Position numbers and translations under genes: made by a program. The notes under the pieces were generated by a model. The model searched no databases and was not told the origin of the DNA. It saw nothing but the letters and a program-made list of their open reading frames with translations. Of a stretch of DNA of 48,257 nt, positions 25,621 to 33,864 are shown piece after piece (positions within the stretch are counted from its first letter, which is position 1; each line of letters opens with the position of its first letter). This stretch comes from Minisyncoccota bacterium (GTDB lineage: Bacteria > Patescibacteriota > Minisyncoccia > Phycocordibacterales > UBA9973), in the NCBI GenBank assembly GCA_035438585.1, contig DAORIO010000002.1, forward strand, positions 1-48,257. The letters run 5' to 3'.

Positions 25621-26130
25621 ATGGAAAGAACACTTATAGTATTTAAACCTGACGCAGTTCAGAGGGGGATTACTGGGGAAATTATTGCTCGTTTTGAAAA
25701 AGCGGGACTAAAAATCGTTGGGGCAAAGATGGTTTGGCCAAACGAAAATCATTACGATAAGCATTATGAAGGAATCGGAAAGCTTGCAACACGAATGGGG
25801 CAGAAAATTTGTGATATGACAAAGAATATGATGTGCGAAGGACCAGTTTTTGCTCTTGTTTTAGAGGGTGTTGAGGCTGTAACGCTTGTTCGAAAGATGG
25901 TTGGATCAACTGAACCAAAGAGTTCAGCACCAGGAACAATCAGAGGGGACTACGCACACATGAGTTATGGGCATGCTGATTCAAATGATATAGCTTTGCC
26001 AAATATTATTCATGCTTCAGGTTCACTTGAAGACGCAGTTCAAGAAATTCCACACTGGTTTTCTGATGATCAGATTTTTGAGTATGAAACTGTGTACGAA
26101 AAATTTACGTTGAAGAAAAAGGCTAAATAA
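25621..26130 (+). CDS. ndk: Nucleoside diphosphate kinase
   Basis: ERTLIVFKPDAVQRG..GEII.RFE..GLKIVG.KM and PGTIRGDY......N..HASGS motifs. Confidence 0.94.
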   Translation: MERTLIVFKPDAVQRGITGEIIARFEKAGLKIVGAKMVWPNENHYDKHYEGIGKLATRMGQKICDMTKNMMCEGPVFALVLEGVEAVTLVRKMVGSTEPKSSAPGTIRGDYAHMSYGHADSNDIALPNIIHASGSLEDAVQEIPHWFSDDQIFEYETVYEKFTLKKKAK

Positions 26131-26199
26131 TTTTTTTCTAAAACGCATTTTTTGAATTGTCTATATTGTTTTTGTGAAAAATTTTTTATAAGATTAAGA

Positions 26200-26386
26200 T
26201 ACGGTTATTTCAGCGTATTACCGAGAAACACAATATTTTAGGGAGCCAATAGTTTTCTTTATTTTTACAAGGAAGCGGTAATGATTTGCTTTGGCATTTC
26301 ATTCAGGCACCCCCGTGGGCCAAGGCTACGGTAATATTCTTGTAATAACCGTAAGTAACAAGCCGACGTTTTGTCGGCTTTTTTCT
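26200..26386 (+). ncRNA. Candidate structured RNA (unclassified sRNA or cis-leader) ending in an intrinsic terminator
   Basis: Long-range helix: TACGGTTATT (26200-26209) pairs with AATAACCGTA (26344-26353), and TATTACCG (26216-26223) pairs with CGGTAATA (26329-26336). Duplicated CGGTAAT and GCCAA boxes offer alternative pairings. Candidate -10 boxes are TATAAG (26187-26192) and TAAGAT (26195-26200). The terminator is at 26361-26386. Confidence 0.4.
26361..26386 (+). terminator. Intrinsic terminator
   Basis: AGCCGAC / GTCGGCT stem with a short T-rich loop, followed by a T6 run. Confidence 0.8.
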
Positions 26387-26392
26387 AAAAAT

Positions 26393-26800
26393 ATGAATTT
26401 TTTAAATAAAAAAATATTTTTCACCTTATTTTTAACACTTTTTTTGTTATTTTTACATGTTGGTGCTATAAAATTTGGCTGGTATTACATATTTTATGAG
26501 TTTGATATGGTTCCGCATTTTTTGGGCGGGCTTGTTATTTTTTTAATAATTTATAATTTCTCTTTAGTTTTTAAAAGAGAAATAAAAATTTTTAATATTA
26601 TTTGGTTGGTTTTTTTAGTTACTATTTTTTGGGAATTTTTTGAAATATACTTAGATAATACGTTTGGGGTAGAGTATGCTAGGACTTTTGATTCAATATC
26701 AGATATATGTTTAGGGTTAAGTGGTGCAATGATCGGTGCTTTTTTCACAGCAAAAATAGATAAAAACATATATAATAAAGTAAATGACAAACAAAGCTAA
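26393..26800 (+). CDS. Small multi-pass membrane protein (135 aa)
   Basis: Start moved to the ATG at 26393 (MNFLNKKIFFTLFL...), because the track's upstream part overlaps the structured RNA and terminator. About four hydrophobic helices. Confidence 0.6.
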   Translation: MNFLNKKIFFTLFLTLFLLFLHVGAIKFGWYYIFYEFDMVPHFLGGLVIFLIIYNFSLVFKREIKIFNIIWLVFLVTIFWEFFEIYLDNTFGVEYARTFDSISDICLGLSGAMIGAFFTAKIDKNIYNKVNDKQS

Positions 26801-28148
26801 GATAACTTTTTGTTCTGGGGCTGGTACTGTAACAGGTGCTAATTTTTTATTTGAAATAAATGAGAAAAAGTTTTTAATCGATTGTGGAATGATCCAAAAT
26901 TCTAAATTGGCAGACGAAATAAACTGGGATCCATTTCCGTATAATGCAGGAGAAGTTGAAATACTATTTGTAACTCACGCTCATATTGACCATGTTGGCA
27001 GAATACCAAAATTAATACAGGAAGGTTTTAGGGGGCGAATAATTTCATCTATTCCATCAAAAGACATAGCAGATTTGATGATGCGTGATACTGCTGGAAT
27101 TTTAACTCAAGATGACGCAAATGGATTAGAAATTTTCTTCAATGAAAAGAATATAAATTTGGCGCTATCTTTGTGGGAAACTTATGACTACAACAAAGAA
27201 ATTAAATTGTCAGAAAATATAACTGTCACACTAAAAGATGCTGGGCACATATTGGGTTCGGCAATGATCTGTTTTAGGGCGTACGGTAAAAATATTGTTT
27301 TTACAGGAGATTTAGGAAATTCTCCGTCGCCAATCTTGCCAGACACTGAAATCCTTAAAGATGTAGATTATTTGATAATGGAAAGCGTGTATGGGGACAG
27401 GAATCATGAATCACGTGATGAGAGAAAGAAAAAATTAGAAAAAGTAATTGAAGATAATTATGGAAGAAAAGGGGTTTTGATTATTCCAACATTTTCACTC
27501 GAGAGAAGTCAAGAATTACTTTTTGAAATAAATGATTTTGTTGAAAACAATAGAATCCCACCAATGCCAGTTTATATTGATTCGCCTTTAGCAATAAAAC
27601 TTACTGCTGTTTATTCAAAATATACAAAATATTTAAATTCCATTGCGTTAGGTAAAATAAAAGAAGGGGATGATATATTTAATTTCCCAGGCCTAAGGGT
27701 CACTCTTTCGACTGATGAATCAAAGGGTATATTAAAAGTTCCATCACCTAAAATAATTATGGCAGGGAGTGGAATGTCTATGGGGGGAAGAATAGTGCAC
27801 CACGAAAAAAATTATTTACCAGATAAAAACAACACTCTTCTTTTGATCGGATTTCAATCTCTTGGAACAATGGGTAGATTGATTGAAGAAGGTGCAAAGA
27901 AAATTAGAATCACAGGGCAGGATGTCATGGTTAATGCGCATATTGAGAAAATCAGTGGTTATTCTGGGCACAAAGATTCAGATTCTTTAATTTCTTTTGT
28001 TGAAACAAATGCAGATAGTTTAAAAAAAGTTTTTTGTGTGATGGGAGAACCAAAATCAGCAATGTTTTTAGCTCAAAAAATTAGAGATTATTTAGGTGTC
28101 GAAGCTATTTCTCCGGGAGCAGGAGATGTCTACGAAATAAACTTATAA
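26784..28148 (+). CDS. MBL-fold beta-CASP family ribonuclease-like hydrolase
   Basis: HAHIDHVGRIP (HxHxDH), DAGHILGS and ESVYGDR motifs, with a beta-CASP-like C-terminal H motif (GYSGHKD). Overlaps the upstream ORF by 17 nt. Confidence 0.85.
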   Translation: MTNKAKITFCSGAGTVTGANFLFEINEKKFLIDCGMIQNSKLADEINWDPFPYNAGEVEILFVTHAHIDHVGRIPKLIQEGFRGRIISSIPSKDIADLMMRDTAGILTQDDANGLEIFFNEKNINLALSLWETYDYNKEIKLSENITVTLKDAGHILGSAMICFRAYGKNIVFTGDLGNSPSPILPDTEILKDVDYLIMESVYGDRNHESRDERKKKLEKVIEDNYGRKGVLIIPTFSLERSQELLFEINDFVENNRIPPMPVYIDSPLAIKLTAVYSKYTKYLNSIALGKIKEGDDIFNFPGLRVTLSTDESKGILKVPSPKIIMAGSGMSMGGRIVHHEKNYLPDKNNTLLLIGFQSLGTMGRLIEEGAKKIRITGQDVMVNAHIEKISGYSGHKDSDSLISFVETNADSLKKVFCVMGEPKSAMFLAQKIRDYLGVEAISPGAGDVYEINL

Positions 28149-33468: not shown

Positions 33469-33480
33469 ATGTTTTTAAAA

Positions 33481-33864
33481 GTGGAGATGGCGAGATTCGA
33501 ACTCGCGTGCAAAAGTATGTTCAAATTGATCTTCGTGTGTAGTTTGCTCTGGTGTTTCGCGTATTGATAAAGGGCAAACAAAAATCTTTACGCTATCTTC
33601 TAAGTTTTCTTTTAGAAAGTCGAAGAAGTCTTTCTAAAATAAAGATTGACTGTATAAGACCCTAATCCCTGACATCAATCAGATCAAAGTAGGATCCGAG
33701 ACTCTTAAGCGAGTGCTCGTGCAAAGGCCACGTTTTGAAACGGGCTCTTTACATAACCAAATGTTTTTCCATTTGGAGTTGCAACATGTGTTAACGAGCG
33801 ACATTTGCATGCTCGACACGCACAATTTGAAGCGATATCTCTTGTCGATGCCATAAACATCCCC
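33481..33864 (-). ncRNA. ssrA: tmRNA (SsrA)
   Basis: On the minus strand, the 5' end is GGGGAUGUUUAUGGCAUCGACAAGAG and the 3' end is GCGAGUUCGAAUCUCGCCAUCUCCAC. The acceptor pairs GGGGAUG/CAUCUCC with G3:U70. There is an internal tag ORF, and the gene lies immediately downstream of smpB. Confidence 0.9.
33705..33782 (-). other. Predicted tmRNA tag reading frame (ATPNGKTFGYVKSPFQNVAFARALA*)
   Basis: Hand translation from resume codon GCA (33782-33780) to TAA (33707-33705). The Ala-rich hydrophobic C-terminus ...ARALA is typical of degradation tags. The choice of resume codon is an inference. Confidence 0.55.

Follow-up and report, generated by a model that had tools for sequence, protein, structure and literature searches.

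6S RNA is a small RNA that imitates an open promoter and thereby regulates the RNA polymerase of bacteria. In the 6S-1 RNA of B. subtilis, the 5' strand of the central bubble is open, while the 3' bubble strand holds a preformed hairpin of 5-7 bp (PMC8876501). Truncated 6S-1 constructs, reduced to the bubble and two short arms, still complete the cycle in vitro: they bind the holoenzyme, serve as template for product RNA and are released (PMC8876501). The 6S RNAs of B. subtilis are matured and degraded by RNase J1, a beta-CASP enzyme (PMC10578484). Our literature search found nothing specific on 6S RNA in Patescibacteria or CPR bacteria.

The window analyzed here, i.e. the whole stretch of 48,257 nt, originates from a 551-kb genome assembly (82% complete, CPR type). 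It contains an ndk gene (25621-26130; Pfam NDK, E 8e-39) that is followed by an intergenic gap of 262 nt, extending from the end of ndk at 26130 to an ATG at 26393. A previous sequence-only reading had proposed a structured RNA in this gap, whose coordinates hold. The gap very probably contains ssrS, encoding a compact and divergent 6S RNA of a Paceibacteria (CPR/Patescibacteria) bacterium. We base this identification on covariance models that bridge the RNA, via intermediates, to RNAs recognized by the Rfam 6S model (RF00013), and on a core motif shared with the RF00013 consensus. The ATG at 26393 opens an ORF for a membrane protein of 135 aa with four transmembrane segments and without a Pfam match (26393-26800), which overlaps a gene for a beta-CASP metallo-beta-lactamase RNase (26784-28148). 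Metagenomes of wastewater, activated sludge, rivers and freshwater, from 13 studies (2015-2025), contain DNA nearly identical to positions 25621-27200, and the organism is therefore widespread in engineered and natural fresh waters.

The RNA is preceded by promoter-like elements on the plus strand. The predicted -35 element TTGTTT (26166-26171) is separated by a 17-nt spacer from the predicted -10 element TAAGAT (26189-26194), which ends 6 nt before the closing stem of the RNA (P1). In relatives, the -35 element reads TTGCNN or TTGTNN. At the fixed -10 position, 75 homologues most often carry TATACT (41 sequences), TATAAT (13), TAAAAT (6) or TACAAT (6), and nearly all of the hexamers fit TAnnnT. 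Just 5' of the -35 element, and overlapping it, lies the motif GTCTATATTG (26159-26168, plus strand), present as a single exact copy in the window; many of the family's genomes carry GTCTA(N)ATTG at the same place 5' of the RNA, and a promoter pattern search of the window found no second promoter of the GTCTA..TTG type. The GTCTA(G/T)ATTG motif, also seen for example at loci L035, L047 and L048, is partly palindromic (TCTAGA), and may represent a regulator site or an upstream promoter element.

The position of the -10 element places the predicted transcript start at ∼26199-26201, at the foot of P1, and the terminator defines the predicted 3' end. The resulting 6S RNA transcript (26199-26386, plus strand) would comprise ∼188 nt including the terminator hairpin, with a core of ∼155 nt (26200-26353). 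As noted in the sequence-only reading, a strong intrinsic terminator lies 6 nt before the ATG at 26393; it spans 26360-26386 (plus strand) and is composed of an 8-bp stem (26360-26367/26373-26380) with a 5-nt loop, and a T run that ends at 26386. A run of at least four T residues is present within 70 nt downstream of the RNA in 73 of the 75 homologues, and is preceded by a GC-rich hairpin at the loci that were inspected. Between ndk and the membrane-protein gene, the gap holds a self-contained unit in which a structured RNA is flanked by a sigma-70-type promoter and a strong intrinsic terminator. In the segment 26387-26395, the ATG follows the T run by 6 nt, with neither a Shine-Dalgarno sequence nor space for a promoter. 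Expression of the membrane ORF and of the beta-CASP gene in this genome probably depends on transcription that reads through the 6S terminator, or else on a promoter located within the RNA gene. A separate TATACT-like -10 element was observed 3' of the terminator at many of the relatives' loci.

Public sequencing runs were consulted as Logan assembled contigs, from which transcript ends, strand and level cannot be read and in which uncovered parts are uninformative. In run X18, which is labelled as cDNA and was flagged as probably DNA, one contig of read length (151 nt) covers 26201-26350, with both flanks uncovered, which gives at most a weak hint of expression. In X19, a true metatranscriptome, coverage is confined to 26966-27113, within the RNase gene. 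Run X16 yielded two read-length contigs, and in X3 everything was covered, in a DNA-like manner.

The plus strand of 26161-26392 was found to fold better than shuffled sequences: the predicted energy is -66 kcal/mol, compared with -45.1 ± 4.1 kcal/mol for 200 shuffled sequences (z = -5.16), none of which reached the native value. The minus strand of the same segment folds less well (-53.1 kcal/mol, z = -3.8). The closing stem P1 is formed by 26200-26210 and 26343-26353 (plus strand; 10 bp and a U-U mismatch), and includes the 10-bp helix 26200-26209/26344-26353 recognized in the sequence-only reading. An internal loop, also recognized there and measuring 4-5 nt on each side, separates P1 from P2, in which 26215-26222 pairs with 26330-26337 (plus strand; 8 bp) and which is the counterpart of the 6S ‘downstream’ helix. 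The previously described 8-bp pairing of 26216-26223 with 26329-26336 is present as well, together with a G26215-U26337 wobble. In relatives, both partners have changed in nine of the 11 pairs of P1 and in six of the eight pairs of P2.

Beyond P2 the RNA opens into a central bubble. Its 5' strand (26223-26240, plus strand; 18 nt) is single-stranded and would be the template of the product RNA. Across the 75 homologues this strand is unpaired in the consensus, measures 16-21 nt (mode 17) and opens with UAGAACA in 53 sequences, the window having GAGAAAC; it corresponds to the 16-nt open stretch that precedes GGG in the Rfam 6S consensus. The base of the apical stem, P3, is formed by GGGAGCC (26241-26247) and GGCACCC (26306-26312), both on the plus strand, which pair across a conserved A-A mismatch; both-side changes were found in five of its six pairs. 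P3 carries a variable apical domain (26248-26305, plus strand) of 58 nt in the window and 31-66 nt in relatives, which differs in both length and sequence and is often capped by a GC-closed UUCG, CUUG or UUUG loop. The apical arm is short (∼17-20 bp), and may be too short to reach a -35-like contact. The 3' bubble strand (26313-26329, plus strand) holds the hairpin P4 (26315-26318/26326-26329); in the 75 homologues it is 16-20 nt long (mode 17), with a hairpin of 4-5 bp. P4 has been kept in spite of sequence change, with CUAGC/GCUAG in relatives and GUGG/CUAC in the window, where the outer C-G pair has become G-C and the third pair, A-U, has become G-U. The core is 134-170 nt long in relatives, with a median of 142 nt.

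To assess conservation, the gap was compared by BLAST with 200 genomes of the same family, which gave a single full-length match, in a genome of the same genus (84% identity), and partial ones in many genera. Eleven homologues that were extracted and aligned, including that of the window, share the same helices, with compensatory changes in 11 of 32 pairs, and were used to build a first covariance model, confined to this family (R1). This model found exactly one copy on the sense strand in 145 of the family's 151 genomes, and in all 116 of those with a completeness of at least 90%. Second matches were limited to much weaker antisense ones at the same locus, scoring 27-50 bits where the sense strand scored 78-156 bits, a roughly threefold difference; the sense strand of the window itself gave 127 bits, and the antisense strand of a near-identical copy from the same genus gave 33.5 bits.

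Covariation was examined in 34 sequences from three families, over 29 consensus pairs in four helices. Standard pairs are formed in 94.2% of the cells, compared with 34-44% when the partners are slid, and 20 of the 29 pairs show both-side (compensatory) changes. None of 500 shuffles reached any of the observed measures. The same helices hold across the 75 homologues. When 151 genomes from across the class were sampled with a broader model built from 60 sequences (R2), 41 of them, representing at least 25 families, were found to have a single copy, and all 23 newly fetched matches that were inspected have the same architecture and core motifs. These results show that the gap contains a conserved, single-copy RNA gene that extends from promoter to terminator and has a covariation-supported fold. 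The earlier proposal of an independent structured RNA of ∼185 nt with its own promoter and terminator is supported; the helices are kept in homologous regions of relatives, a check which that proposal had itself suggested.

A search against Rfam had been suggested as well. At both gathering and permissive thresholds, the window and the region gave only terminator look-alikes (IS128, AgrB, STnc430) at the RNA gap. RF00013 remained silent on the RNA of the window even at E ≤ 10 on a 171-nt segment, and had no match in the window, the region, its own genome or 41 genomes of the family. No other 6S candidate was found in the window's own genome or in the 41 relatives. RF00013 does match a member of the same class (G247) directly 3' of ndk, with 35.9 bits (E 4e-6) against a threshold of 46.4 bits, and R2 matches the very same place. 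Across the phylum, a scan of 151 genomes with RF00013 gave 22 matches, seven of them above the threshold of Rfam; the one in G247 is the match within the window's class.

The class-wide and Rfam-recognized RNAs were connected by the covariance models in both directions. R2 found 14 of 20 RF00013-positive loci, agreeing with RF00013 in position and strand, and its best score was 45.9 bits (E 6.6e-7). A third model (R3) was built only from the seven Patescibacteria RNAs above the 6S threshold of Rfam. At three loci of family f47 (L063, L064 and L065), which R1 detects with 54.7, 38.3 and 35.7 bits, R3 gave matches that agree in position and strand, with 27.7, 35.3 and 32.6 bits (E 6e-5 to 7.5e-7). 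In total, R3 matched 17 loci of the class at E ≤ 0.013, namely these three and 14 others, with up to 48.7 bits (E 3e-10). The automatic consensus structure of R3 is not the canonical 6S fold, and its matches therefore rest mainly on sequence. R3 reaches the family of the window only weakly (best score 14.5 bits, E 0.12), so that the chain of homology needs both the intermediates and the shared core motif.

This motif is found in the part of the RNA that surrounds the bubble. The core of the RF00013 consensus reads ...GGGagccc...gggcaCCCACCUgg..CaGG... (gggcaCCCA CCUgg..CaGG, followed by the P2 3' strand), and that of the window's family reads GGGAGCC...GGCACCCAC-CUAGC..GCUAG. In the window itself, GGGAGCC (26241-26247) and GGCACCC (26306-26312), followed by the hairpin, match the 6S consensus core, and P4 aligns with CCUgg...CaGG of the consensus. 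In the 5' bubble strand, the motif ..AACA.. is shared with the Patescibacteria 6S RNAs that RF00013 detects. The 6S-like closed rod that the sequence-only reading had discerned is supported. Beyond shape, the core around the bubble is that of the Rfam 6S consensus, and the models link it via intermediates to RNAs that pass RF00013. We conclude that the RNA is a divergent, compact member of the known 6S RNA family, missed by the standard Rfam model.

By analogy with E. coli and B. subtilis (PMC8876501), the RNA would imitate an open promoter, lodge in the active-site channel of the sigma-70-type holoenzyme and hold the polymerase back when nutrients are scarce. Once NTPs return, the polymerase would copy the 5' bubble strand as a template, probably starting opposite the conserved C of UAGAAC and proceeding into P2, to give a product RNA of ∼14 nt; a product of 14 nt would reach exactly the end of P2. 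Its synthesis would unwind P2, refold the RNA and free the enzyme, and the preformed P4 could be extended by pairing of the freed GG with CC. The release step was examined by folding. The duplex energy between the distal 5' bubble strand and the P2 3' strand was compared with that of shuffled sequences, and no bubble-collapse helix of the B. subtilis type was found beyond shuffles (mean z = -0.33). When P2 and the proximal bubble were held open, a weak GG:CC extension of P4 appeared in some sequences only, and no uniform rearrangement was seen with P2 opened.

Throughout the family of the window the genes are arranged as ndk - RNA - (membrane ORF) - beta-CASP, an order that recurs in families f47 and f9; outside the window's family, ndk is the most frequent upstream neighbour of the RNA. 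Interest in the beta-CASP neighbour comes solely from the action of RNase J1 on the 6S RNAs of B. subtilis. One could envisage a natural ‘minimal’ 6S RNA without the -35-mimicking arm that evolved as a unit with ndk and the beta-CASP RNase, or was re-used for a task other than polymerase control. Under such a scheme ndk would provide the NTP supply that sets product-RNA synthesis and the beta-CASP enzyme would carry out 6S turnover, which, if true, would amount to a compact starvation-exit module in bacteria with ∼0.6-Mb genomes. We regard this as unlikely.

Also improbable is the idea of a 6S descendant that no longer traps polymerase at all and has taken on another role in connection with its fixed neighbours. 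The RNA might, for instance, serve the adjacent beta-CASP ribonuclease as partner, decoy or substrate, or convey a signal connected with ndk. The unusually short arms, the score below the Rfam model, the gene order shared by the family and several others, the activity of RNase J1 toward 6S RNAs and the outcome of the release tests would all agree with it. However, the parts of the RNA that have been conserved are precisely those by which known 6S RNAs are recognized by polymerase, i.e. the bubble, the flanking G-C pairs and the 3' hairpin. Moreover, the beta-CASP gene is not invariably adjacent to the RNA in other families of the class, and gene order within a single class is a weak sign of functional coupling. 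In addition, a minimal 6S-1 RNA works in vitro (PMC8876501). The gene preceding ndk in several other families (loci L063-L066, L109-L111, L120, L129 and L131) codes for a membrane protein that has a metallo-beta-lactamase motif of the FLDVGQGDA type (ComEC/Rec2-like); in the family of the window, that position is occupied by a VirD4/TraG-like ATPase instead of the ComEC/Rec2-like gene found elsewhere.

The sequence-only reading had also pointed to a riboswitch- or leader-like element, and a cis-regulatory leader (riboswitch or attenuator) could in principle control the operon of the membrane protein and beta-CASP genes through the terminator. The terminator ends so close to the ATG at 26393 that no room is left for a separate promoter, the RNA is always upstream of the same genes in the family of the window, and its conserved nucleotides cluster at a three-way junction, as in an aptamer. 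Nevertheless, we consider this very improbable. In other families of the class the gene 3' of the RNA is ThiI-like, site-2-protease-like, QueA-like or UMP-kinase-like, and in some the downstream genes are on the opposite strand with the RNA still present. At many loci the terminator is followed by a TATACT-like -10 element. A P1 that switches would be far less stable than the closing rod of ∼20 bp formed by P1 and P2. Between relatives the terminator differs freely in sequence and has no conserved complement inside the RNA, and no antiterminator pairing exists beside the rod. The repeated boxes on which alternative pairings had been based do occur where they were described (CGGTAAT at 26276 and 26329, GCCAA at 26245 and 26319, ATTACCG at 26217, TTGGC at 26291), but the mutually exclusive pairings drawn from them are not conserved: the boxes at 26276 and 26291 lie in the variable apical part, and the CGGTAAT at 26276 is changed in a genome of the same genus. 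The leader interpretation was rejected because the downstream genes vary and the alternative pairings are unconserved; in addition, both sequence and structure link the RNA to 6S RNAs.

A divergent signal recognition particle (4.5S) RNA would likewise be a single-copy, small and overall hairpin-like RNA present in every genome, and Rfam finds no SRP RNA in these genomes, but the probability of this assignment is negligible: domain IV would have to sit in the apical part, which is the variable one, and the lack of any model match together with the lack of Ffh and FtsY rules it out. Specifically, the SRP RNA models RF00169 and RF01854 gave no SRP-clan match on the region at E ≤ 10 and none in the genomes searched. 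SRP54-type GTPases (PF00448; Ffh, FtsY) were absent from 10 genomes of six families, nine of which are at least 95% complete, the tenth being the 82%-complete assembly of the window, and the SRP M domain (PF02978) was absent from six of those 10. The genomes in which SRP components were looked for are G000, G006, G041, G077, G074, G026, G206, G307, G311, G294 and G214. The SRP pathway thus appears to be absent from near-complete genomes of six families of the class, in agreement with the absence of ffh and ffs from Parcubacteria published in 2015 (PMC4508563). RNase P RNA and tmRNA were ruled out, as both are found elsewhere (the former at G000:C16, the latter in the window at 33479-33864).

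The 6S RNA reading fills a gap in annotation: judged by Rfam-based annotation, this large class of ultra-small, uncultured bacteria seems to lack 6S RNA, yet it has one copy per genome. It would mean that 6S RNA has kept its global control of RNA polymerase through extreme genome reduction, including in bacteria that have lost SRP. No new kind of system is revealed; what is new here is the bridge to 6S RNAs recognized by RF00013, the shared core motif and the exclusion of a leader by the variable downstream genes. The alignment could serve as the seed of a new Rfam model or of an extended one, and the naturally short arms offer a test of the minimal 6S RNA needed for function.

In comparison with 6S RNA/SsrS (RF00013) of the B. 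subtilis 6S-1 type, the RNA of the window's class has the same rod made up of a closing stem, a central bubble and an apical stem. It also shares the bubble of ∼17 nt per side, in which the 5' strand is open and the 3' strand contains a small preformed hairpin (PMC8876501), the core GGGAGCC / GGCACCCA followed by a CCUNG...CNAGG hairpin, the single copy per genome and a strong sigma-70-type promoter of its own. It differs in size, its core of 134-170 nt (median 142) contrasting with about 185-200 nt, in its closing stem, which consists only of P1 (11 bp) and P2 (8 bp), in its short and variable apical arm, and in the separate intrinsic terminator hairpin located 3' of the closing stem. Unlike in B. 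subtilis 6S-1, no bubble-collapse helix is detectable in the RNAs of the window's family.

The 6S RNAs that RF00013 detects in other classes of Patescibacteria (for example L132-L138, 47-73 bits) are likewise of ∼150 nt, have ..AACA.. in the 5' bubble strand and the same core (GGGAGYC...GCGGRCACCCACCUGG, or with CCUAG), and are cross-detected by R2 and R3. In contrast to the RNAs of the window's class, their closing stem is longer and richer in G+C, and they adjoin neither ndk nor a beta-CASP gene. At three of the RF00013-positive loci, all in family f93 (L133, L136 and L137), the G+C-rich closing stem runs into a U tract and looks like a terminator. A tRNA gene follows within about 10 nt of the 6S RNA at L140 (1663-1733), and is located ∼1.4 kb downstream of it at L132 (3023-3098).

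The truncated B. subtilis 6S-1 RNAs (78-82 nt; PMC8876501) resemble the RNA of the window in having the bubble between short arms and no clear -35-like arm. These are laboratory constructs with an about 10-fold lower affinity, whereas the RNA described here is natural, conserved and of intermediate size. Since the short-armed constructs complete the cycle in vitro, the short arms found here are compatible with function. The RNA of the window's class fills a 6S slot that would otherwise be empty in these genomes.
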